Positions 1-8,290 of a stretch of 8,290 nucleotides of DNA are shown piece after piece. The stretch spans positions 1-8,290 of the forward strand of contig JBMFJL010000024.1 in the NCBI GenBank assembly GCA_049973735.1, read 5' to 3'. The position numbers were made by a program, and so were the translations under genes. Source of the DNA: Nanopusillaceae archaeon. GTDB taxonomy: Archaea; Nanobdellota; Nanobdellia; Nanobdellales; Nanobdellaceae. The notes under the pieces are model-generated. The model was not told the origin of the DNA. It was given only the letters and a program-made list of their open reading frames with translations, and ran no database searches. Each line of letters starts with the position of its first letter. Position 1 is the stretch's first letter.

Positions 1-495
1 CCAAGCAGAATAATAAACTTTTTGATTAAAATTATTAATTAAATTATCAATTTCATTATATGTTTTAATAAAAGTTTCTTCATCCAGTTTTATTCCAAAA
101 ACATTTTCAAATATTTTTGGAATTTCGTTAATCAAATCAAATTTATAATATTTATGTTTCTCATAATCAATTGCTAAATAATTGCAATTCAAAACTTTTT
201 TTGTAACTATTGCCATTTTTGATGTACCAAAATTTATAACTTTTCTTATATTCAATCCATGTTTTTCTAACTCTTTATTTATTTTAGCTATTGAATATTT
301 TTTTGATTCGCTAATTATTTCATCAATATCTAAATTTGTTAAACTTTTAACAACAAATTTTAAAGATTCAAAATCTAGATCATAAAAATCATCGCTATTT
401 AAATTTAATACTAAAAAATCTTTTTTACATCTAAACATAAACACAAGTTCATTATAATAAGAAAATTTGATGGGAGCCAAAAAGGAAAGCCTCAT
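1..495 (-). CDS. Hypothetical protein, N-terminal 165 codons only (runs off the left edge); paralog of the 2337..2912 product
   Basis: Absent from the supplied track because there is no in-window stop. The reverse frame is open from ATG 495-493 to base 1: MRLSFLAPIKFSYYNELVFMFRCKKDFLVLNLNSDDFYDLDFESLKF...NNFNQKVYYSAW. The ATG overlaps the TGA of the upstream gene 492..686 (ATGA). The N-terminus, the LxLNLN[ST][DN][DE]F motif and the N[FY]N-x7-W motif align with 2337..2912. The + ORF 182..385 is its antisense shadow. Confidence 0.7.
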   Translation of the reverse strand, partial: MRLSFLAPIKFSYYNELVFMFRCKKDFLVLNLNSDDFYDLDFESLKFVVKSLTNLDIDEIISESKKYSIAKINKELEKHGLNIRKVINFGTSKMAIVTKKVLNCNYLAIDYEKHKYYKFDLINEIPKIFENVFGIKLDEETFIKTYNEIDNLINNFNQKVYYSAW

Positions 496-686
496 TTTAA
501 TCTAAATAGCTTTGCTTTTCCTACCTCTCTATATTCTACAATTCCTTTCCCTAATAAATAATGCAAATATTTTGTTACTGTAATTCTGCTAACTTCTACT
601 TCATCTGCTATTTCTTTTATTGTTTTTTCTCCATTTTTTAAGCATTTTATTATCTTATTTATCACTTTCTCTTCTTCTTCCTCCAT
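492..686 (-). CDS. Small winged helix-turn-helix DNA-binding protein (ArsR/TrmB/MarR-like), 64 aa
   Basis: The segment KTIKEIADEVEVSRITVTKYLHYLLGKGIVEYREVGKAKLFRL shows the canonical helix-turn-recognition helix followed by a beta-hairpin wing (G-x-V/I-x-x-x-x-x-G-K/R-x-x-x-F/Y-x-L). It has an acidic N-terminal tail. A BRE/TATA sits upstream at 704-722. The gene is translationally coupled to the downstream gene. Confidence 0.8.
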   Translation of the reverse strand: MEEEEEKVINKIIKCLKNGEKTIKEIADEVEVSRITVTKYLHYLLGKGIVEYREVGKAKLFRLK

Positions 687-703
687 AAATATATTAATAA
701 ATA

Positions 704-722
704 TTATTTAAAAGATTTTCGA
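704..722 (-). promoter_or_regulatory. Archaeal BRE/TATA promoter for 492..686
   Basis: The minus strand reads TCGAAAATCTTTTAAATAAT. The BRE-like G is 34 nt from the ATG at 686. No SD is present, which implies a very short or absent leader. Confidence 0.5.
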
Positions 723-733
723 TAAAAATTATA

Positions 734-750
734 GTAAGCCTTAAATATAT
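734..750 (+). promoter_or_regulatory. Archaeal TATA promoter for the 767..2372 operon
   Basis: GTAAGCCTTAAATATAT, with 18 nt between the TATA and the ATG at 767. The BRE is weaker than at the other promoters (no GAAA). Confidence 0.45.
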
Positions 751-766
751 TTTTTATTAATATATT

Positions 767-961
767 ATGAATAAGGAAGAATTTATCCAATATATGGAAG
801 AGCTAAAAAAGAAATATAAAATAGTTCCATTATCTATTATTTATTCCGAATTAGAAAGAAAAGGGGTTGAAAGGGGGAAAATAAAATATTGGTTAAAAAC
901 ATTAGATGGAACTTTTTTTAAAGTTGAAAATTGGAATGTGATATTTATAGAAAATGGTTGA
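767..961 (+). CDS. Hypothetical 64-aa protein, possibly a small wHTH-like DNA binder
   Basis: ATG-initiated ORF with composition like its neighbours. The helix / helix (SIIYSELERKGVERGKIKYWLKTL) / beta-hairpin (TFFKVENWNVIF) layout is compatible with a winged helix, but this is weak. It overlaps the next gene by 8 nt (operon). Confidence 0.6.
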   Translation: MNKEEFIQYMEELKKKYKIVPLSIIYSELERKGVERGKIKYWLKTLDGTFFKVENWNVIFIENG

Positions 962-1793
962 AATAAAGTTTAATATAAAGTTTAATAAACAATTTATAAT
1001 TCCTACATTATTTGGATTAGTTGTATTGGCTTTCCTTTTTTGGTATATTTCAAACGCTTCTATAAAAGAAAAAATAGAAAAATATATTAGAAATGAGCTT
1101 GGAATATTTTGTGAAAATTTTGATTTTAAAGATATTGGCAATATATATGAAGTTAAGGGATGTAACTTTATTCTTTATTTTACAAAAGATGGTAAATATT
1201 TTATTAGGGGTTATCCTGAGGAAATAAAATTCTTAGAAAAAAGAGATGTACCAAAAATAATAGTATTTACAATGCCATTTTGCCCAGCATGTAATATATT
1301 TTTTCCAAATTTAGTTAGGCTATATGATGAATTTAAAGATTATGTAAAATTTGAAATTTATCCAAGCGAAATTCAAATTCATGGGGATCTAGAAGTGCTT
1401 GAAGCATTAAGAGAATATTGCATGATAAATAAAAGCATTGATAATTATTTTAAACATTTAAAATGTTATATAAATTTAAATTCATCTGAATGTTTTAATG
1501 AAAAAGAACCAGATAAAGTTTTTAATTGTTTATTTGAGAAATATGAGAAATGTTATGAAAAAAATGATGAAATAGAAAATTGTGTTAAAGAATTAAATAG
1601 ATCTGTTGAATATTTACCTTTTAGAGCTAAACTTAATTTTGTTTCAGAAATAAACTCGAAATATAATATTTTTGCAACACCAACAATTATAATTAATGAT
1701 AAAAAAGTAAATTTGGATATTAGAGATTATAATCAAATCAAAAAAACTGTTTGTAATGCATTTTTAAACCCTCCAAATATTTGTAAATTTTAA
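954..1793 (+). CDS. Membrane-anchored thioredoxin-fold thiol:disulfide oxidoreductase (DsbA/BdbD-like), 279 aa
   Basis: N-terminal TM helix (IIPTLFGLVVLAFLFWYIS). A beta-strand plus CxxC active site follows (IIVFTMPF-CPAC-N, nt 1281-1292). Next comes a long helical insertion, then the cis-Pro loop A-T-P-T-IIIN (nt 1674-1685), typical of DsbA-family proteins (GTPTFxxNG). There are 12 Cys in total, 10 of them outside the CxxC. Confidence 0.85.
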   Translation: MVEIKFNIKFNKQFIIPTLFGLVVLAFLFWYISNASIKEKIEKYIRNELGIFCENFDFKDIGNIYEVKGCNFILYFTKDGKYFIRGYPEEIKFLEKRDVPKIIVFTMPFCPACNIFFPNLVRLYDEFKDYVKFEIYPSEIQIHGDLEVLEALREYCMINKSIDNYFKHLKCYINLNSSECFNEKEPDKVFNCLFEKYEKCYEKNDEIENCVKELNRSVEYLPFRAKLNFVSEINSKYNIFATPTIIINDKKVNLDIRDYNQIKKTVCNAFLNPPNICKF

Positions 1794-1806
1794 TTTACAT
1801 ATTTAA

Positions 1807-1830
1807 GCGAAAAGGACTTAAATATTTCGG
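1807..1830 (+). promoter_or_regulatory. BRE/TATA promoter for 1843..2372, quasi-palindromic
   Basis: GCGAAAAGGACTTAAATATTTCGG. The BRE G at 1809 is 34 nt from ATG 1843. The reverse complement (CCGAAATATTTAAGTCC) also reads as BRE+TATA, so a divergent antisense start is possible. Confidence 0.5.
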
Positions 1831-1842
1831 TAATATATTATT

Positions 1843-2082
1843 ATGGTTGCTATGAATAAAAAAATACTATACTTAATAGCTGCAATAGTGCTAGTATCAG
1901 TAGCAGCAGGAGCAGTATATAAAATATATAAAACTCATACAATAACAGTAAGTGTTCAGGAACCTTTAAATATAACAGCATATGAAACTATAGATGTTAG
2001 TGGATATCCAGGAGAAGAAGTTGAAGCAAAAGTATTAGACATTGAAAATAAAGCACCAGAACTGGTTTTACAAAAGAATTGA
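1843..2082 (+). CDS. Small N-terminally membrane-anchored or secreted protein, 79 aa
   Basis: MVAMNKKILYLIAAIVLVSVAAGAVYKIY is a signal-anchor or signal peptide, followed by a beta-rich acidic ectodomain. An alternative start lies at ATG 1852 (MNKK...). Promoter spacing favours 1843. The TGA stop overlaps the TTG of the next ORF. Confidence 0.6.
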   Translation: MVAMNKKILYLIAAIVLVSVAAGAVYKIYKTHTITVSVQEPLNITAYETIDVSGYPGEEVEAKVLDIENKAPELVLQKN

Positions 2083-2372
2083 AAAAACTGTATAATATAG
2101 TTGGTACACAAAATAAAACAATAAAAGAATTAGAGCAAATAATAAGCAATTATTCTTTAGAAATTAGCAAATTGGAAGAGGAAAATAAAAAATTAAAAGC
2201 AAGTAATGAAGAATTGTTAAATGCATATTTAAATGCAACAAAAGAAAGTAAGGAAAAAGATGAATTAATAACAAAAATAATAATTGTTTGTTTAACAATA
2301 ATTGCTATTTCAACAGCATTGAATATATATCTTTACTTAAGGAAGTTTAAGATATCTTCTGTTCCAAGCTAA
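2079..2372 (+). CDS. Tail-anchored coiled-coil membrane protein, 97 aa, TTG start
   Basis: The only available start is TTG 2079, inside a TTGA start/stop overlap. The heptad-like segment IKELEQIISNYSLEISKLEEENKKLKASNEELLNAYLNATKESKEKDE is followed by a C-terminal TM helix (IIIVCLTIIAISTALNIYLYL). Composition is genuinely protein-like. The start codon is uncertain. Confidence 0.55.
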   Translation: MKKLYNIVGTQNKTIKELEQIISNYSLEISKLEEENKKLKASNEELLNAYLNATKESKEKDELITKIIIVCLTIIAISTALNIYLYLRKFKISSVPS

Positions 2373-2912
2373 TATAGTTTTTGGTGAAAAACCAAAAAGC
2401 TCTGCTATTTCTTCTACTTTTTTTGCACTACATTTCCATAAACAGCATGCCAAAATTCCATTATAATTTTCATTTTTATATCCATACTTTTCTTCCAATT
2501 TTTTAAACATTTTTTCAAAACCTTCAAAATCAATATAAATGTTTAAAACATTTGAAATATATTTTGCAACATCTAATATATTATCTGTTCTTAAAAACTT
2601 TTTCAAATAAAAATCAAAAAACAAATATTTTTTTTCTATTAAACTTTTCCTAATTATAAATGTATCATTAGCATCCCTTTTAAAAACTAAAATTCCAAAT
2701 TTTTTTAATGTTTTATTTTTTCTTTGTATTTTTTCATCAACTTCAATATTTATATCTTTAAGAAATTTTTTAATGTTTTCAATATCTCCAAATTCAAATT
2801 CGTTTGTATTTAAATTTAATGCTAAATAATCATAATTAAAAGTAAATAAAAATCCCTCTTCATTTTTACTTCCATAAAAACTTGTTTTTCCAAACAATTT
2901 AAACCTTAACAT
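2337..2912 (-). CDS. Hypothetical 191-aa protein with a C-terminal helix-turn-helix; paralog of 1..495
   Basis: The C-terminus SAKKVEEIAELFGFSPKTILAWNRRY matches the common HTH pattern (xxEIAxxxGxSxxTxxxWxxRY) seen in IS630/resolvase/terminase-small type HTHs. The N-terminal ~150 aa align with the 1..495 product. Its start is overlapped by the upstream gene (14 nt). Confidence 0.75.
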   Translation of the reverse strand: MLRFKLFGKTSFYGSKNEEGFLFTFNYDYLALNLNTNEFEFGDIENIKKFLKDINIEVDEKIQRKNKTLKKFGILVFKRDANDTFIIRKSLIEKKYLFFDFYLKKFLRTDNILDVAKYISNVLNIYIDFEGFEKMFKKLEEKYGYKNENYNGILACCLWKCSAKKVEEIAELFGFSPKTILAWNRRYLKLP

Positions 2913-3123
2913 TTATTTTTTCTCCCCACTTTAATACAATAATTCTGTAATCGCTATCATTTTCAAATACTAAAATGCAAAATTTTGATCTTTTATTTAA
3001 AAAATCTGCAAGCGCATAAGAATCTTTTATTTCAAAATTGTTTAAGTGTGCTATTTCAACAATTTTATTTAATGTTTTATCTAAATTTTTCTCATTAACA
3101 ACAATTTCTTTTATTTTTTTCAT
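2899..3123 (-). CDS. Hypothetical 74-aa protein (start trimmed to the first ATG)
   Basis: The track ORF 2899..3183 begins at a GTG and translates the promoter region (VIKFFFQFQFLYLSFSIII). The ATG at 3123-3121 gives MKKIKEIVVNEKNL..., with a TATA centred about 23 nt upstream. Helix then beta-hairpin (FCILVFENDSDYRIIVLKW). The layout weakly resembles 6976..7209. Confidence 0.6.
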   Translation of the reverse strand: MKKIKEIVVNEKNLDKTLNKIVEIAHLNNFEIKDSYALADFLNKRSKFCILVFENDSDYRIIVLKWGEKINVKV

Positions 3124-3132
3124 AATTATTAT

Positions 3133-3150
3133 AGAAAAGCTTAAATATAA
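3133..3150. promoter_or_regulatory. TATA element shared or bidirectional between 2899..3123 (-) and the region upstream of 3229 (+)
   Basis: The + strand reads AGAAAAGCTTAAATATAA, a consensus BRE+TATA in the + orientation. The same TATA is at the right distance (about 23 nt) for the minus-strand ATG at 3123, but there is no good BRE on that side. Confidence 0.35.
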
Positions 3151-3194
3151 AAATTGGAATTGGAAGAAGAATTTGATAACCACAAAAAAATTAT

Positions 3195-3213
3195 GGAAAA
3201 AGCATATAAATAG
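3195..3213 (+). promoter_or_regulatory. BRE/TATA promoter for 3229..3573
   Basis: GGAAAAAGCATATAAATAG. The BRE G at 3196 is 33 nt from ATG 3229. No SD is present. Confidence 0.5.
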
Positions 3214-3228
3214 GTTTTACTTAAATTT

Positions 3229-3573
3229 ATGGTCGTTAAAAGAATATACAGACCAAGAGGATTGCATAAAGTAGGATCTTTAGTAGGGGAAGAAAGAGCA
3301 CCATTGTTTAAGCAGCCTAGTAGAGTATATGTTAGTCCAGATATTACGCCAGGGCTATTCTTAGCAGTAAAAGCTAAAAAACATGTAACAGTTTATAAAA
3401 GAAAGAGAGAAGCTCCTGGAGCAGGTCATCCAGTTGTTAAGGCAATATTTAAAGAGTGTGCAATGCAAACAAAAGGTATTGCTAACAGAGACGAAAGAGT
3501 TAAAAAGATTAGAGAATGTATATTAGCGGCACTTGACAAGAGATTTTCAAAAGTAGCTGAAGTAAAAGCATAA
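3229..3573 (+). CDS. Strongly basic 114-aa protein, candidate nucleic-acid-binding / chromatin or virion-core protein
   Basis: Hand count: 16 K + 11 R against 3 D + 7 E, net about +17. It is Pro/Gly/Ala/Arg-containing, unlike its neighbours. Two 60-nt lines (3241-3300, 3301-3360) count 38% and 42% G+C, against 22% for line 2641-2700. It is monocistronic, with its own promoter and terminator. I do not recognise the family. Confidence 0.8.
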   Translation: MVVKRIYRPRGLHKVGSLVGEERAPLFKQPSRVYVSPDITPGLFLAVKAKKHVTVYKRKREAPGAGHPVVKAIFKECAMQTKGIANRDERVKKIRECILAALDKRFSKVAEVKA

Positions 3574-3581
3574 TAGTTGTA

Positions 3582-3628
3582 AGTAAATAAAAGTAAAAAA
3601 CTAAGAAAATTTGTTTACTCTTTTTTTT
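3582..3628 (+). terminator. Hairpin plus T8 terminator for 3229..3573
   Basis: AGTAAATAAA (3582-3591) pairs with TTTGTTTACT (3610-3619) over 10 bp including one U-G wobble, with an 18-nt loop. C then T8 follows (3621-3628). Oligo-T tracts are the established archaeal termination signal. Confidence 0.45.
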
Positions 3629-3629
3629 A

Positions 3630-3980
3630 TTATTTATTTAAAGTAAATAAATAGTATGAATTATTACTTGTTTTAATTAACAAACCATTTTCTAAATTTA
3701 TTTTTGCATCTTTTTTTTCTCCAAAAAACAAAATTACAATTTTTCCAATTTGAACATTATTCTCATTTGTATGATATATTTTTCTCCCATTTACAACTTC
3801 ACTCTTCATTATTTTCATTTTTTCCAACCTTTTTAACCTACTTCTAAAAAAATTATCTATTATTTTAATATCATTTGAATTGAATAAATTTTTATATTTT
3901 TGTGCTTCAGAATAACTTGTTATTTTTTCTTTTAAACCATCTAATATTAACAATATATCAAACGTATCAATCCTTTCCAT
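3630..3980 (-). CDS. Putative wHTH DNA-binding protein with a C-terminal beta-rich domain, 116 aa
   Basis: The N-terminal part (FDILLILDGLKEKITSYSEA ... FRSRLKRLEKMKIMKSEVVNGRKIYHT) matches the recognition-helix plus wing pattern (LKRLEKxGLIxxxxxGRKxxYxLT) of MarR/PadR-like winged helices. The C-terminal 40 aa are beta-rich. Confidence 0.65.
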   Translation of the reverse strand: MERIDTFDILLILDGLKEKITSYSEAQKYKNLFNSNDIKIIDNFFRSRLKRLEKMKIMKSEVVNGRKIYHTNENNVQIGKIVILFFGEKKDAKINLENGLLIKTSNNSYYLFTLNK

Positions 3981-4006
3981 ATTTAAATATAAATTTAAAT
4001 AATATT
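3981..4006. promoter_or_regulatory. 26-bp bidirectional control region made of two ATTTAAAT palindromes
   Basis: ATTTAAATATAAATTTAAATAATATT is the entire spacer between ATG 3980 (-) and ATG 4007 (+). The self-complementary octamer ATTTAAAT occurs at 3981-3988 and 3993-4000. No GAAA-type BRE is present on either side. Confidence 0.45.
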
Positions 4007-4363
4007 ATGGTAATATTAGTGAAAAGGACAGCAGAAGAATTTAAAAAAGAATTTGCCGAATTTTGTGAATCAAGAAATGGAGTATTTAAAGATTTTGGGA
4101 ATAGTTTTAGATGTCAAGCAAAAGAATTCGAAATATTTGGAAGGGAATTTGAAGGTAAATATGATATTAAATTTTCATTTTTAGCAGAAAAACCAATTTC
4201 AATTTATATGATAAATAAAGATTTTATTGGTGTAAGAACTATAAGAACTGGGTTTGAAATATTGGGAGCAAGTGAAGGTGAAATGGTATTTGTAAAAGTT
4301 TATAAGCCTGGAGAAAAAATTGAGGCAGTTGAAATAGAGTCAAGAACATTTTCTCCAGAATAA
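4007..4363 (+). CDS. Hypothetical 118-aa protein (start trimmed to ATG 4007)
   Basis: The first 35 codons of track ORF 3902..4363 are antisense to 3630..3980 and hydrophobic junk. From ATG 4007 the sequence is protein-like: MVILVKRTAEEFKKEFAEFCESRNG... It is beta-rich in the C-terminal half. No family recognised. Confidence 0.7.
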   Translation: MVILVKRTAEEFKKEFAEFCESRNGVFKDFGNSFRCQAKEFEIFGREFEGKYDIKFSFLAEKPISIYMINKDFIGVRTIRTGFEILGASEGEMVFVKVYKPGEKIEAVEIESRTFSPE

Positions 4364-5143
4364 TTAAAATTTTAGCATTTTCTTTATTTTTTCTAGCTCT
4401 TTCTTTAATTCTTCAATTTCTTCCTTTCTTGTTGCTGCTTTTTCTAGCTCTTCCATTCTACTTTCAATTTCTTCAACTTTAAATGAAAAATATCTAATAT
4501 CATATGCACTTTTCATTATTTCTCTTCTTAATGTTTCAATTTCTTCTCTAACTTTTTTAATCTCTTCGGCCAAGAGTTCTTCCATTGGATACTCTATTAC
4601 AACTTCTTTAACAGGTTTTAAACCTAAAAATATTTCAATTTCATCTAAAGACCTCAAATTTCTAATTAAATAACTAAGTTCTGGAAACGAAAAATATAAA
4701 CATCCTGTTTCAATATTTTGTTCTAACTTTATTTTTCCAATCTGAGCCATTTCTATTATATCATTCATTAGAATGTTAATAATTGGGTGCAAAACATATT
4801 CTTTGTGGGTTTTTAAATATTCTTCATAATTTGGATATACAAATGCTAAAGGATGTGGAATTTCTCTAACTCTAATTGCAACAAAATATGTATATATACA
4901 TTTTTCTCCAACTTCAACATTCCATTTTAATATTTCTTCAATTTTTTTGTATTTTCCTTTGGATGCATAATATGCTAGATCATCTAAAAAATTTTCAATT
5001 TTATAAAGTTTAATATCTATTCTGTCTTTATCTATTGTTGTTGTTGCCTTATAAGAAGCGTCATAATGTAAAGATTTAAAAGCTCTTACAACTTTTTCAC
5101 TTTCTTCTTTATCAAATGTTGGAAACAAAGGATACCAAGGCAT
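4364..5143 (-). CDS. Hypothetical 259-aa protein with a C-terminal coiled coil
   Basis: Long ORF with coherent composition. The last ~70 aa (EELLAEEIKKVREEIETLRREI...EELEKAATRKEEIEELKKELEKIKKMLKF) are heptad-like. No catalytic motif recognised. No consensus promoter lies immediately upstream, so it may be co-transcribed with 5286..5801. Confidence 0.8.
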   Translation of the reverse strand: MPWYPLFPTFDKEESEKVVRAFKSLHYDASYKATTTIDKDRIDIKLYKIENFLDDLAYYASKGKYKKIEEILKWNVEVGEKCIYTYFVAIRVREIPHPLAFVYPNYEEYLKTHKEYVLHPIINILMNDIIEMAQIGKIKLEQNIETGCLYFSFPELSYLIRNLRSLDEIEIFLGLKPVKEVVIEYPMEELLAEEIKKVREEIETLRREIMKSAYDIRYFSFKVEEIESRMEELEKAATRKEEIEELKKELEKIKKMLKF

Positions 5144-5155
5144 AATTATATTATT

Positions 5156-5293
5156 ATGGAAATAGAAAAAGAAAAACTAAAAAAGCTTTTAGAAGATTTT
5201 TTTGACATACTTTTCTTTTTTGGTTTAATAGCAGTAATAATCATGTTTTTATCTCTATTATTTAAACTATTAGGTATACCTATCATTAAATAA
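5156..5293 (+). CDS. Possible 45-aa single-pass membrane protein (below the track cutoff)
   Basis: Hand translation gives MEIEKEKLKKLLEDFFDILFFFGLIAVIIMFLSLLFKLLGIPIIK, a charged N-terminal helix plus one TM helix. It fills an otherwise unexplained 142-nt gap. Against it: there is no consensus BRE/TATA at the right distance, and its 3' end overlaps 5286..5801 by 8 nt. Confidence 0.35.
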   Translation: MEIEKEKLKKLLEDFFDILFFFGLIAVIIMFLSLLFKLLGIPIIK

Positions 5294-5801
5294 AGCAAGA
5301 AATTATTTTATCAATCATTTCATCAACATTGTTTTTTGTTATTTCTATTATTTCATATTTTTCACCATTTATATATAATAGTTTTGCACTTTCAGTTATT
5401 ATTAAATAGTTTTGGTCATTCGCAGAAATTATTTTTGTTGCTTCTTGTATTTTTGTGAATCTAAAATTTTCCGCTTTTATTTTATGTATTTCTTGTTGTA
5501 TTTCATTTATCAACTTTCCTATATTGTTAATAGTTTTGTATAGGAAGTAAAAATTATTTTCATGCGAATAATTATCATATAAATAAACTATAGTTTCTCT
5601 TGCATCATTTAATTTTCTTATCGCTTCTCTTAACATTTTTATCTCTTTTTTATTATATCTTAATTGTCTTAAAATTTTATCTAATTTTTCATCATCATAT
5701 ATATTTAAAACTTCTAAAGCATTTTTTGCGTTTTTTTCTTTAAGTTTCTGAACTATTAAATTTATTGTCTCTTTCAACTCTTTTACTTTTTCATCATTCA
5801 T
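5286..5801 (-). CDS. Hypothetical 171-aa protein, helical N-terminal part and alpha/beta C-terminal part
   Basis: ATG-initiated ORF with a BRE/TATA upstream (5815-5831) and composition like its neighbours. No motif recognised. Confidence 0.75.
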   Translation of the reverse strand: MNDEKVKELKETINLIVQKLKEKNAKNALEVLNIYDDEKLDKILRQLRYNKKEIKMLREAIRKLNDARETIVYLYDNYSHENNFYFLYKTINNIGKLINEIQQEIHKIKAENFRFTKIQEATKIISANDQNYLIITESAKLLYINGEKYEIIEITKNNVDEMIDKIISCFI

Positions 5802-5814
5802 AATATATATAAGA

Positions 5815-5831
5815 TATATAAATATTTTTCG
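5815..5831 (-). promoter_or_regulatory. BRE/TATA promoter for 5286..5801
   Basis: The minus strand reads CGAAAAATATTTATATA. The BRE G is 29 nt from the ATG at 5801. It lies in the 39-nt gap after the stop of 5841..6347. Confidence 0.5.
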
Positions 5832-5840
5832 TTAATATGC

Positions 5841-6347
5841 TTAATGTCCATATCTTAATAGTTCATATTCTTCAACCTCTTCATCGCTAAATTCTAATTC
5901 ATAACCTTTTAAACTATTTATCCAAAACGGGCTTTCTATCATATCTCTAGCATCCCAATACAGTTCATTTAATAATAAGTCTAATTCTACAGCTTTTAAT
6001 TCGTTTTCCCACTCATCATATAAATGTTGTATATAGCTAACCAAATCATAACCTTTTCCTCCGTAGTGTATTGGTAATAAACTGTTTATAAATTCTCCAA
6101 GTGGAATTGTTTTTTCATAACTTATTTCCATCCAAAACGGGTGCGCACCTTTCCCAATTCTTACCACACTAGCCGGATATTGTCCAGTTTTTATCATCCT
6201 TATTAAAACATAATTCGGTTTTCTAATAAACCTTCCGGTATCAATATCTCTTAACATCACATACCTTACTCTTTCTGTTTCATATAGCTCTATTCTTACT
6301 CTTAATTCATCGATCACTGTATACCAAACCAATCTTCTAACTACCAT
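5841..6347 (-). CDS. Hypothetical 168-aa protein with an internal PFW...[HR]YG repeat
   Basis: G+C-richer than average (line 6121-6180 counts 47%). The start overlaps the stop of 6341..6727 by 7 nt. PFW occurs at residues 70-72 and 140-142, exactly 70 aa apart, each followed 21-22 aa later by [HR]-Y-G. No Walker or other catalytic motif recognised. Confidence 0.8.
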   Translation of the reverse strand: MVVRRLVWYTVIDELRVRIELYETERVRYVMLRDIDTGRFIRKPNYVLIRMIKTGQYPASVVRIGKGAHPFWMEISYEKTIPLGEFINSLLPIHYGGKGYDLVSYIQHLYDEWENELKAVELDLLLNELYWDARDMIESPFWINSLKGYELEFSDEEVEEYELLRYGH

Positions 6348-6727
6348 TCGTTTAATATTTCTTCAAGGTCTTTTCTTATCTTTTCCTTGCTTGCAACTTT
6401 ATTATTTTCAAATTTTGCACCGAATAAGTAATTCATCTTTTCAAACCTTTCTCCAATCTTTTTGTATCTAACATAATTTAAACACTCTCTTTTCCAATCA
6501 GAGCCAAGTAATAATTGTAAAATTATTATTTCTAATGGATGAGTAATATTTTCTGCTTTACATTTTATGTGAAATCCATTTTTTGTTTCATACACTTCAA
6601 AATCCCTTATTTTAATGTTTGCATCTTTTTCCAATATTTCTTTTACTGTTTTTATTCTTTCAATAACTTCAGCAATATTTTTATCATCCACATCTATTTT
6701 AATAACTTTTTCAACCATAAAATTCAT
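6341..6727 (-). CDS. 128-aa RRM-like protein with DxD / GxH / sD motifs (candidate minimal AEP/prim-pol-like catalytic module; speculative)
   Basis: VIKI-D12-V-D14-D (nt 6683-6694), ETKNGF-H53-IKC (6569-6571) and LLLGS-D77-W (6497-6499). The predicted order is beta-alpha-beta-beta-alpha. The ORF overlaps the upstream Zn-ribbon gene by 17 nt, or 8 nt if the start is M4 at 6718. The ORF call is solid; the functional call is low confidence. Confidence 0.75.
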   Translation of the reverse strand: MNFMVEKVIKIDVDDKNIAEVIERIKTVKEILEKDANIKIRDFEVYETKNGFHIKCKAENITHPLEIIILQLLLGSDWKRECLNYVRYKKIGERFEKMNYLFGAKFENNKVASKEKIRKDLEEILNEW

Positions 6728-6938
6728 ATTTTATTTCAAATTCTGAGCGAATTTTTTCATAACATTCATCACAAAGGAACATTTCAACTTTTTTAACAAT
6801 CTTCTTCCCTTCATAAAATTTAAAAACAAACTTTTTTAATTTATGTTTTTTTGCTAACTCTTCTATACTTTCTTTTAAATTATTTGTTCTTAATAATTCT
6901 TTTTTACAAACTCCGCAAGCAATTATTAACTCATTCAT
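6711..6938 (-). CDS. Small 4-Cys zinc-ribbon protein, 75 aa
   Basis: CGVC (residues 8-11) and CDEC (56-59) flank a Lys-rich helical/beta segment. A BRE/TATA sits at 6958-6975. Confidence 0.7.
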   Translation of the reverse strand: MNELIIACGVCKKELLRTNNLKESIEELAKKHKLKKFVFKFYEGKKIVKKVEMFLCDECYEKIRSEFEIKYEFYG

Positions 6939-6957
6939 AAATTATAAATACACAAGT

Positions 6958-6975
6958 TATATAAATGCTTTTCGG
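6958..6975 (-). promoter_or_regulatory. BRE/TATA promoter for the 6938-to-5841 operon
   Basis: The minus strand reads CCGAAAAGCATTTATATA and abuts the stop codon of 6976..7209. The BRE G is 35 nt from the ATG at 6938. Confidence 0.55.
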
Positions 6976-7209
6976 TTATAATTTTGTTACTATTAAATAT
7001 ACTTTTTTATCATATCTCTCTATGTCGAAAGCAAAAATTAAAGTATACATTTTACTTTCTAAATAATTTAATAATTTTTTAAATTCTACAACGTTTAAAT
7101 TACTAATATCGAAAACAATATAATCAACTTTTCTTATATCATTTTCAATTTTTTCAATTATTTCATTTGCTTTCATTTGTATATTAATATTCTTTTCTAA
7201 TTTTTTCAT
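6976..7209 (-). CDS. Hypothetical 77-aa protein
   Basis: ATG ORF with an N-terminal helix (KANEIIEKIENDIRK), then alpha/beta (VVEFKKLLNYLESKMYTLIFAFDIERYDKKVYLIV). No oligo-T follows its stop, so read-through into the next gene is likely. Confidence 0.65.
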   Translation of the reverse strand: MKKLEKNINIQMKANEIIEKIENDIRKVDYIVFDISNLNVVEFKKLLNYLESKMYTLIFAFDIERYDKKVYLIVTKL

Positions 7210-7232
7210 TTCTATCTATAACTATTTATAAA

Positions 7233-7254
7233 ATATATATATATATCTTTTCTG
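7233..7254 (-). promoter_or_regulatory. BRE plus (AT)7 TATA promoter for 6976..7209
   Basis: The minus strand reads CAGAAAAG followed by (AT)7 (7233-7246), then 23 nt to the ATG at 7209. Confidence 0.45.
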
Positions 7255-7261
7255 TATCAGT

Positions 7262-7288
7262 AAAAATAAAAAAAAGGAAAAAGAAAGG
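7262..7288 (-). terminator. Oligo-T terminator after 7289..7585
   Basis: The minus strand reads CCTTTCTTTTTCCTTTTTTTTATTTTT starting right after the stop (T5 and T8 runs). Confidence 0.4.
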
Positions 7289-7585
7289 TTATTGAACTTG
7301 TAATATTTCCTTTAGCTCCTGCAAAAACTTTTCTGCTTCTTTTTTGTAATCTTCATATTCGTCTTTAAATAGCGCTTTTTCTGGATCTCTAATATCGCTA
7401 GTTATTTTGGGCTCCACCAAATACTTGTCTGCAACGCTTGCATTTATTATTATTTTTACTTTTCTTCCTGTTCCAAGTTCAACTTCTTTTTCTGCCCTAA
7501 CGTCGTAGTACCACCATCCGTCGTATTTTATGTTGTATATTTTTATTACTGCTTGTATTTGTGTAGTTTTTGTTATCTCTTCCAT
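7289..7585 (-). CDS. Hypothetical 98-aa protein, beta-rich N-terminal domain and acidic helical tail
   Basis: Monocistronic, with its own BRE/TATA and oligo-T terminator. It contains IYNIKYDGWWYYDVRAEKEVELGTGRKVKIIINASV (beta strands) then DPEKALFKDEYEDYKKEAEKFLQELKEIL (helix). No family recognised. Confidence 0.8.
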   Translation of the reverse strand: MEEITKTTQIQAVIKIYNIKYDGWWYYDVRAEKEVELGTGRKVKIIINASVADKYLVEPKITSDIRDPEKALFKDEYEDYKKEAEKFLQELKEILQVQ

Positions 7586-7606
7586 AATATATTAATATAT
7601 ATAAGG

Positions 7607-7624
7607 TATATAAAAGCCTTTCGG
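7607..7624 (-). promoter_or_regulatory. BRE/TATA promoter for 7289..7585
   Basis: The minus strand reads CCGAAAGGCTTTTATATA. The BRE G is 37 nt from the ATG at 7585. The 11 nt before the ATG (ATTAATATATT) are identical to those before ATG 767. Confidence 0.55.
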
Positions 7625-7649
7625 TACAACTAAAAAATAATAAAAATAA

Positions 7650-7690
7650 TATTTATATTAACATGTATTATAATATTAATAATATAAATA
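7650..7690. repeat. 11-bp inverted repeat with a 19-nt spacer inside a long non-coding spacer
   Basis: TATTTATATTA (7650-7660) and TAATATAAATA (7680-7690) are perfect reverse complements. The spacer contains the short palindromes ACATGT, TTATAA and AATATT. The arms are AT-only, so statistical weight is modest. Confidence 0.3.
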
Positions 7691-7765
7691 CGTATATATG
7701 CATTTTTCAAAAGTTGCATTAATTCATATATAAATACATATTATATATAATAATAGTAAAATAAT

Positions 7766-7782
7766 AAAAAAAGGGAAAAAGA
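7766..7782 (-). terminator. Oligo-T terminator after 7783..8091
   Basis: The minus strand reads TCTTTTTCCCTTTTTTT immediately after the stop. The motif is almost the same as at 7262-7288. Confidence 0.4.
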
Positions 7783-8091
7783 TTATAAAACTTTATACTT
7801 CTTATAATACTCCTGTCTGCAGCTTTCGCAGATTACTTCTTTGAGATATAGCATATTACCGACTTTTTCGATTACTGCATACCCGTCGCTTATTATTCCT
7901 TCTAATTTTTTTAAGTCTTCTTCTAACTGTGGGTTAAATACGGGAGCGTTGCAACAATCACAAACTATTGCTTCCTTCTCTATGATTTCATCATCAATTA
8001 TTAGCGGCTTAAGGATATATTTAGCTATTCTTTTAGCTGTTTCTGTTTCTATTACTTTGTTGTTTTTAAAAACTTTAACCAACATTATCAT
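7783..8091 (-). CDS. Small Cys-cluster (putative zinc-binding) protein, 102 aa
   Basis: CDCC (residues 44-47) and CESC (88-91). The C-terminal knuckle VICESCRQEYYKKY resembles FLCDECYEKIRSEF of 6711..6938. The gene is monocistronic with its own promoter and terminator. Confidence 0.8.
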   Translation of the reverse strand: MIMLVKVFKNNKVIETETAKRIAKYILKPLIIDDEIIEKEAIVCDCCNAPVFNPQLEEDLKKLEGIISDGYAVIEKVGNMLYLKEVICESCRQEYYKKYKVL

Positions 8092-8111
8092 AATATTATA
8101 AATATTTAAGT

Positions 8112-8128
8112 TATATAAATCCTTTTCT
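8112..8128 (-). promoter_or_regulatory. BRE/TATA promoter for 7783..8091
   Basis: The minus strand reads AGAAAAGGATTTATATA. The BRE G is 36 nt from the ATG at 8091. A second GATTTATATA copy lies 26 nt further upstream (8138-8147). Confidence 0.5.
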
Positions 8129-8214
8129 ATTCTAAAGTATATAAATCTAGCACTGATCTACTAGAATAATAAACATTAATATTTAATTTCTTTATTTCCT
8201 ATTTCTATTAATTG

Positions 8215-8290
8215 TTATTTTTTATCTTCGTTGTTTCTCAAAGATGTTAAAATTTGTTGTTTATGCTCTTTCTTGTTTTTTGTTTGTGCC
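8215..8290 (-). CDS. Possible 3' end of a gene entering from the right edge
   Basis: This is the longest open reverse frame from the edge: ...AQTKNKKEHKQQILTSLRNNEDKK, with its stop at 8217-8215. Only 24 codons are visible. A competing + ORF starts at 8244. Confidence 0.25.
   Translation of the reverse strand, partial: AQTKNKKEHKQQILTSLRNNEDKK

Follow-up and report, generated by a model that had tools for sequence, protein, structure and literature searches.

Two Divergent Helix-Turn-Helix-Like Paralogs, Each with Its Own Small Partner Gene, on a Probable Mobile Element of a Hot-Spring Archaeon

The locus described here lies on contig JBMFJL010000024.1, positions 1 to 8,290, and contains two large paralogous genes; by "the window" we mean this whole 8,290-nucleotide stretch, which has a GC content of ~20 to 30%. 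Each of these lies in a two-gene operon, behind its own cognate small gene. The closest described proteins are small winged helix-turn-helix (wHTH) regulators of the TrmB, ArsR, and Lrs14 types from archaea and mobile elements and C-terminal helix-turn-helix (HTH) domains of the HTH_23 and HTH_28 types. One small partner exceeds the TrmB and HTH_5 thresholds, while the large proteins end in an HTH, show weak similarity to HTH_28, HTH_23, and Terminase_5, and yield a confident helical model. As with many autoregulators, the small operons sit beside divergently transcribed genes. Unlike those described proteins, the large proteins begin with a 130-amino-acid domain (the N-domain) that has no sequence relative or significant structural relative, and their HTH falls below every curated cut-off.

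Sequence comparison confirmed that the two large minus-strand genes (Table 1) are divergent paralogs, as the initial annotation of this DNA had proposed. BLASTP of the left against the right protein gave an E value of 1e-11, with 30% identity and 52% positives across 136 aligned amino acids. Their Smith-Waterman score of 159 corresponds to 15.4 standard deviations over 2,000 full shuffles and to 11.2 standard deviations over shuffles restricted to 10-residue blocks, with no shuffle of either kind scoring as high. The similarity is thus well beyond chance for low-complexity sequences rich in K, N, L, and F, the explanation that had been set against paralogy at the outset. As had also been noted, the N termini align in MAFFT, a later anchor places NNFNQKVYYSAW opposite ENYNGILACCLW ("YYSAW/CCLW"), and an 18-mer at positions 397 to 414 is identical to positions 2808 to 2825 at 17 of 18 sites, a degree of matching that never occurred in 200 dinucleotide-preserving shuffles. 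Identity between the two clades is 23 to 30%, and the duplication therefore predates the divergence of two or more element lineages. Ratios of nonsynonymous to synonymous substitution (dN/dS) between variants, calculated for both paralogs and both partners, were 0.05 to 0.36 in all but one of the ten comparisons, the exception being 0.74, on small counts (0.17 to 0.18 for the left copy, 0.15 for the 64-amino-acid wHTH partner, and 0.05 to 0.21 for the 74-amino-acid partner). At the level of sequence, these values show purifying selection on all four genes.

The left copy is cut by the window edge. A search of an index of 5.8 billion proteins returned near-identical relatives only, and their contigs supplied the missing sequence. 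One of them, L001 (8,962 nucleotides), derives from the Arkashin Schurf hot spring in the Uzon Caldera, Kamchatka (metagenome SRR6344961; PMC8468003), and is collinear with the window at 96 to 98% identity in whole-length alignments. The full-length left gene has 206 codons in L001 (positions 8332 to 8952), L002, and L003, where it is 94 to 96% identical to the window copy, and the 41 codons that the window lacks carry the HTH. Leftward extension had been suggested as a check on the prediction that this copy runs on into a C-terminal HTH outside the window. Through the related contigs it recovered a 206-amino-acid protein with an HTH-like C terminus, and both alignment and the modeled structure bear the prediction out. 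The last 40 residues align with the C terminus of the right copy, so that the HTH region can be aligned across both clades; W, S, and R are the only invariant residues kept there, and the N-domain is the conserved part between the paralogs. Pfam HTH models qualify the prediction for the left copy, in that their matches were all sub-threshold and confined to the right copy (HTH_28, 15.2 bits, with a cut-off of 25; HTH_23, 13.2 against 24.6; Terminase_5, 15.9 against 20.3). These matches, along with those to HTH_17 and MerR_1, all fall on right-copy residues 159 to 190. Members of the left clade and the more distant right-clade protein P0004 gave no HTH_28, HTH_23, or Terminase_5 match at an E value of ≤1.

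Structure prediction supplied the domain layout. AlphaFold2 modeled the 191-amino-acid right copy poorly from four sequences (pLDDT [predicted local distance difference test], 62.8), while the 206-amino-acid copy, with six sequences, reached a pLDDT of 91.6 and a predicted TM score (pTM) of 0.84. In the latter model, residues 1 to 120 are beta rich and residues 122 to 201 are helical. Strands within residues 3 to 40 and a helix at 42 to 53 are followed by a helix at 69 to 79, strands within 81 to 119, and a helix at 122 to 133. The C-terminal helices span residues 139 to 149, 156 to 168, 172 to 179, and 183 to 201. Helices 172 to 179 and 183 to 201, separated by a turn within the helical block 139 to 201 (pLDDT, 88 to 97), form the predicted HTH, and the protein is classed as a predicted DNA binder. 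The modeling thus shows each paralog as a basic, beta-rich N-domain of ~130 amino acids followed by a helical C-domain of ~65 amino acids that ends in an HTH, and both domains have basic isoelectric points (8.8 to 9.7). Foldseek matches over the helical part were weak and included TFB/TFIIB cores, KorA, and other HTH proteins. The N-domain has an apparent two-fold pattern that is not significant at the sequence level.

Several candidate relationships were rejected. MraZ, and with it an MraZ/AbrB-like fold, came top only for the model with a pLDDT of 62.8 (E value, 0.9; TM score, 0.34 to 0.43) and was absent from the top 50 of the confident model. GIY-YIG-like matches in BFVD, which was queried with the poor first model only, had meaningless TM scores of 0.10 to 0.19. 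Comparison of the family with nine TATA-binding proteins (TBPs) by hhalign gave a probability of 0.5% and an E value of 0.11. A small serine recombinase was dismissed, since no member matched PF00239 at an E value of ≤1; the only recombinase-related matches (HTH_7 and a PHROG DNA invertase) fall on the HTH of the 64-amino-acid partner.

The family is very small. Across 1.84 billion representative proteins, a profile search yielded no more than three clusters, namely, the right copy (191 amino acids), its 48%-identical relative P0004 (202 amino acids), and P0003 (189 amino acids), which shares 50% identity with the left copy. This agrees with the initial annotation, which did not recognize the family. 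Beyond these, the right copy has relatives that are 96 to 99% identical in L001 and L006. No significant match for the family was found in Pfam, PHROG, PADLOC, or the PDB, and no member was found in PLSDB or INPHARED, in IMG/VR, or in GTDB species genomes.

The small partner genes set the two operons apart. The partner of the left copy is a clear wHTH protein, as predicted, scoring above the Pfam gathering thresholds for TrmB (30.1 bits; threshold, 25.6), HTH_5 (29.6; 22), and HTH_11 (27.7; 25). The partner of the right copy had no match in Pfam, PHROG, PADLOC, NCBIfam, or the PDB and no detected DNA-binding domain; its homolog in L005 is 43% identical (E value, 2e-17). The partners are unrelated to each other (E value, 0.20), and the 74-amino-acid protein is likewise unrelated to the paralog family. 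Both operons lie on the minus strand on either side of plus-strand genes at 767 to 2372, and the stop and start codons within them overlap by 4 nucleotides (ATGA, 492 to 495) and 14 nucleotides (2899 to 2912), as originally described.

Other parts of that description need revision. A duplicated two-gene cassette had been proposed, and it is the large gene alone that is duplicated; the correct description is one duplicated gene, each copy of which keeps a cognate, nonhomologous upstream partner. Nor are the partners swapped, since each paralog clade retains its own across ~50% divergence. Wherever the sequence preceding a left-clade gene is available (four loci, L001 to L004, of which L004 is 50% diverged), it contains the wHTH gene, with overlaps of 4 to 20 nucleotides. 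Right-clade genes come with a gene of 74 or 76 amino acids in L001, L006, and L005/L007. This clade specificity in ~50%-diverged relatives argues that the duplication is old and the pairings specific. The stop/start overlap is no signature of the pair, given that overlap is general gene packing in the window (e.g., 767 to 961 with 954 to 1793, 6341 to 6727 with 5841 to 6347, and 6711 to 6938 with 6341 to 6727). The idea that the family is always directly preceded by a small overlapping gene is broken in L005/L007, where an unrelated 167-amino-acid gene separates the 76-amino-acid partner from the 202-amino-acid family member and overlaps both (L005, 400 to 903; L007, 69 to 485); strict adjacency of partner and large gene is therefore not required. 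Membership of the 167-amino-acid protein in the family was rejected (hhalign E value, 0.12), as was that of a 77-amino-acid open reading frame (ORF) at 6976 to 7209, whose alignment was unconvincing (E value, 0.012 against a local hidden Markov model [HMM]). The right-clade operon of L005 adjoins a primase-like gene and is convergent with a homolog of the window's 64-amino-acid gene, and the bracketing of plus-strand genes is therefore not conserved. The L005/L007 lineage also has a 69-amino-acid Zn-ribbon (CxxC...CxxC) gene convergent downstream.

The promoters of these operons follow a pattern seen across the window. A uniform element resembling a TFB recognition element (BRE) and TATA box, cGAAAag followed by TTTATATA or TTAAATATA, ends 16 to 22 nucleotides before the ATG of most first genes (Table 1). 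The fixed, short spacing suggests leaderless mRNAs. The operon 1 promoter stands back to back with a plus-strand promoter in a near-palindromic divergent region (688 to 766), and these 80 nucleotides between the genes are 99% conserved across four variants, compared with 96 to 98% for window and L001 over their whole length. For operon 2, the orientation of the TATA-like element is ambiguous because a BRE-like purine run (GAAAAGC, 3134 to 3140) lies on its plus-strand side, and a 114-amino-acid plus-strand gene (3229 to 3573) has its own promoter. The left copy starts within the ATGA overlap with the upstream stop, while the right copy has a Shine-Dalgarno (SD)-like GGGGAG 9 nucleotides upstream of its ATG.

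The setting of the paralogs is best explained as part of a mobile element, either a plasmid or a virus, of at least ~13 kb and ~22% GC from a very AT-rich hot-spring archaeon, which supports the mobile-element context first suggested for them. Almost all window proteins lack a family match; PLSDB and INPHARED, each searched with DNA and with tblastn, gave no match, and neither did scans of IMG/VR, Rfam, and tRNAs. To the left of the window edge, L002, L003, and L009 carry a gene of 58 amino acids, a divergent TBP gene, and membrane-protein genes. The element TBP (176 amino acids, PF00352; L002 2311 to 2841, ~300 nucleotides beyond the left edge, and also present in L003, L009, and L010) scores 136 bits against NCBIfam, where the cut-offs of the matched TBP models start at 181 bits, and is 80% identical between element variants. 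Haloarchaeal plasmids and the tailed haloviruses HRTV-9 and HJTV-2 provide the parallel of a mobile element carrying its own TBP, a likeness that concerns this neighboring gene and not the paralogs. Those TBPs are 30 to 42% identical to the element TBP and belong to Halobacteria, in contrast to the probable DPANN host considered here. The closest nonelement TBP found, at 60% identity, is encoded in a cellular RNase HII-TBP-MCM locus of the same samples, and the MCM encoded there is 67 to 70% identical to that of hot-spring "Candidatus Aenigmatarchaeota" metagenome-assembled genomes, which share the TBP-MCM synteny and have a GC content of 24 to 28%. Based on these similarities, the host of the element is probably a member of the Aenigmatarchaeota (DPANN). 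We only infer this host, because one NCBI bin with an element variant is labeled Thermoplasmata, in conflict with the assignment.

Adjoining the TBP gene, L002 2838 to 3524 (minus strand) encodes a protein of at least 228 amino acids with many N-x-S/T sequons and a C-terminal transmembrane anchor. Different genes replace it in variant L009, and its product may be a variable surface or virion protein.

We favor the reading, at about an even chance, that both paralogs are sequence-specific DNA-binding regulators encoded in leaderless two-gene operons beside divergent genes. The duplication is real, yet the arrangement looks like an ordinary regulator pair on a mobile element. A BRE/TATA promoter adjoining the divergently transcribed gene or genes would drive each operon, giving a leaderless mRNA, and the large gene would be translated through coupling at the ATGA overlap or from the SD-like site. 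The two paralogs would share a common N-domain function, namely, oligomerization and/or partner binding, while their diverged HTHs would recognize different DNA sites. Acting on the intergenic control regions, the products would regulate themselves and the adjacent divergent genes, and the small partner would be a second DNA-binding module (the wHTH protein) or a modulator of the large protein (the 74-amino-acid protein). We counted in favor of regulators that four HMM libraries showed no enzyme, toxin, or defense signature.

A number of results weigh against this interpretation. The Pfam HTH matches are below threshold, with none in the left clade; the family profile matched no PDB sequence at an E value of ≤10; and Foldseek of the 206-amino-acid model against the PDB found nothing significant (best E value, 0.26). 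No repeated operator motif was found beyond the promoter consensus. The N-domain, which has no recognizable relative, could carry an unrecognized enzymatic activity, since a Tyr (Y96 in the 191-amino-acid numbering) and several acidic residues are invariant. Finally, searches of the 8.3-kb window and its related contigs turned up no canonical Rep, helicase, or partition ATPase, and the paralogs could themselves be the replication initiator.

The main rival is a role in replication or maintenance, which we judge unlikely while placing it ahead of the other alternatives. Here the paralogs would bind an origin or a centromere-like site, or initiate, with the HTH targeting DNA and the N-domain serving catalysis or assembly; for the small wHTH protein, this reading proposes the function of a site-specific adaptor or copy-number regulator, in a pairing comparable to CopG with Rep or AspA with ParB on archaeal plasmids. 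Weak primase-like features are seen in one 128-amino-acid ORF only, and the best weak HTH matches are of the transposase or terminase-small-subunit type. Rep-Arvir proteins, the Rep_trans-like rolling-circle initiators of archaeal viruses and plasmids, offer a loose parallel, combining on archaeal mobile elements a beta-rich N-domain of apparent two-part symmetry with a DNA-binding HTH or wHTH (PMC13107129). The paralogs appear to share this pseudo-repeated organization, and their one invariant Tyr and several invariant acidic residues add to the likeness, yet our searches identified no defining feature of that family in them. Neither Rep_trans (PF02486) nor DUF7845 (PF25227) of Pfam was matched at an E value of ≤1, Rep_trans domains are more than twice as large as the N-domain, no RepDE or TBP-fold protein ranks among the 50 best Foldseek matches in the PDB, and hhalign against TBP was negative. 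Moreover, two diverged copies are not expected of an initiator, and no NTPase partner is present.

Two further readings are weakly supported. In the first, which we consider quite improbable, the operons are addiction modules resembling type II toxin-antitoxin systems, with the small upstream protein as antitoxin and autorepressor and the large protein as toxin. The two-gene layout on a mobile element, with the small gene first, overlapping stop and start codons, one wHTH partner as in many antitoxins, and clade-specific partners, fits this description. Nevertheless, an HTH is already present in the large protein, for which Pfam, PADLOC, PHROGs, and NCBIfam gave no toxin or defense match and the Foldseek PDB search no significant match, and the 74-amino-acid partner has no detected DNA-binding domain. 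The pair can also be split, as by the 167-amino-acid gene of L005/L007, and overlapping genes are the norm throughout the window. The resemblance to addiction or specificity modules that the initial annotation had pointed to fares poorly for the same reasons: no toxin, defense, or methylase-type match was found.

An equally long shot is a more radical version of regulation, in which the N-domain is a new fold and the paralog-partner pairs are two orthogonal modules of a hitherto undescribed DPANN (Aenigmatarchaeota) mobile element, acting as TFB-like or TBP-cooperating promoter-selectivity factors that reprogram host basal transcription together with the element TBP. The second of the weakly supported readings, which we would rank as very improbable, makes the paralogs element-encoded TFB-like factors, their helical domain being a single cyclin-like repeat with a BRE-reading HTH that redirects the host RNA polymerase with the element TBP. 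Foldseek does list the Pyrococcus woesei TFB core (1ais_B; probability, 0.47; root mean square deviation [RMSD], 3.9 over 112 columns) and the human TFIIB core (5wh1_A; probability, 0.57; RMSD, 3.8 over 85 columns) for the helical C-domain that ends in the HTH, a divergent TBP gene lies ~300 nucleotides beyond the left copy in L002, L003, and L009, and the BRE/TATA elements of the element promoters are strongly uniform. The E values of 0.78 to 0.84 are not significant, however; KorA, PadR, and MntR score alike, and small helical bundles readily match one another. The paralogs have one helical bundle only, without a second cyclin repeat, a Zn-ribbon (no Cys4 motif), or a B-reader, and show no Pfam TFIIB match and no PDB sequence match. 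Least tenable is the idea that the ORFs are not real genes and that their likeness arose by chance from a K/N/L/F-rich, AT-driven composition: a GC content of ~20 to 22% and strong compositional bias invite it, but we regard chance similarity as excluded by sequence comparison, in that composition-adjusted BLASTP still gives an E value of 1e-11, each clade has independent ~50%-diverged members that align end to end, and dN/dS is below 1 in all ten comparisons.

Table 1. Features of the window that bear on the two paralogs
Feature	Position	Strand	Basis and remarks
Left-clade paralog, codons 1 to 165 of 206	1..495	-	Translation; 3' part beyond window edge
64-aa winged-HTH partner, first gene of operon 1	492..686	-	Pfam; upstream of left clade in L001-L004
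Putative BRE/TATA promoter of operon 1, reads CGAAAATCTTTTAAATAA	704..721	-	Ends 17 nt before ATG at 686
Putative BRE/TATA AAGCCTTAAATATA of divergent plus-strand genes starting at 767	736..749	+	Promoter consensus
Bracketed plus-strand genes: 64-aa protein, 279-aa thioredoxin-like protein, two membrane-gene remnants	767..2372	+	Pfam, L001 BLASTN
Right-clade paralog, complete, 191 aa, predicted C-terminal HTH	2337..2912	-	ORF, BLASTP, sub-threshold HTH matches at 159-188
74-aa alpha/beta partner, first gene of operon 2	2899..3123	-	No family match; L005 homolog
Putative TATA-like element of operon 2	3141..3153	Ambiguous	~18-30 nt upstream of 74-aa ATG
ATGs with the BRE/TATA-like promoter	8091, 7585, 6938, 5801, 686	-	Read from sequence
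ATGs with the BRE/TATA-like promoter	767, 1843, 3229	+	Read from sequence

The bracketed plus-strand genes are context for the paralogs, and no functional link between them is implied. A gene for a 64-amino-acid protein (767 to 961) precedes and overlaps that for a 279-amino-acid protein (954 to 1793), which is anchored in the membrane by its N terminus and matches Thioredoxin_4 and Thioredoxin_2 of Pfam; its thioredoxin/DsbA-like domain bears a CPAC motif. The 64-amino-acid protein weakly resembles paralog residues ~134 to 190 (E.F....L..KY ... G.....I..W), and homology was not accepted (hhalign E value, 0.0096; probability, 4%). Downstream, the window lacks 532 nucleotides that are present in L001 (6236 to 6767) and L006, with BLASTN breakpoints at 2059/2064, and the window variant therefore carries a deletion in the membrane operon. 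ORF 1843 to 2082 (79 amino acids) is the N-terminal half of a gene for a signal-anchored protein of 161 amino acids, and ORF 2079 to 2372 (97 amino acids, TTG start) is the C-terminal half of a gene for a 189-amino-acid membrane protein; both genes are intact in L001 and L006. The 3' end of this convergent membrane-protein gene overlaps that of the right-copy gene by 36 nucleotides (2337 to 2372), an overlap kept in L001 and L006.

Elsewhere in the window, the minus-strand ORF of 128 amino acids (6341 to 6727) contains motifs like those of archaeo-eukaryotic primases (KIDVDD, TKNGFHI, and LLGSD), with a weak NCBIfam PriS match (E value, 0.0012), a match to phrog_12608 of unknown function (E value, 3e-5), and no PDB sequence match; from its sequence, it may be a minimal primase-polymerase-like replication protein. 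The 114-amino-acid protein of the plus-strand gene beside operon 2 is highly basic (isoelectric point, 10.4; charge, +17), rich in R, P, G, and A, and well conserved between variants. Its gene lies in a local GC peak of ~29%, against 20% around it, and the protein, which matches no family, may be a nucleic-acid-packaging or structural protein. The right end of the window (8092 to 8290; L001, 1 to 195) is 200 nucleotides of noncoding, T-rich sequence in which short repeats resemble GTTGTTT. Here the window ends within 4 nucleotides of the point where the independent contig L001 also stops, which points to a genome end, a repeat, or some structure that breaks assembly, and the region could be an origin or terminus. 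The search for a right-end extension or circularity was negative, the 102-amino-acid gene being found on L001 only and the 98-amino-acid product not being on record.

Mobile elements of DPANN archaea are almost uncharacterized. The family delimited here is lineage restricted and has a confident predicted structure with no significant PDB neighbor. Its duplication dates from early in the element's history, and the two copies have each been locked to a partner gene of their own. As it stands, the finding is one of solid, fairly ordinary paralogous HTH proteins on a mobile element. If the N-domain is catalytic, the family would represent a new minimal replication or recombination protein. If the paralogs are regulators, they would offer a pair of orthogonal DNA-binding modules, together with defined promoter regions, with which to study gene control in an element that carries its own TBP.

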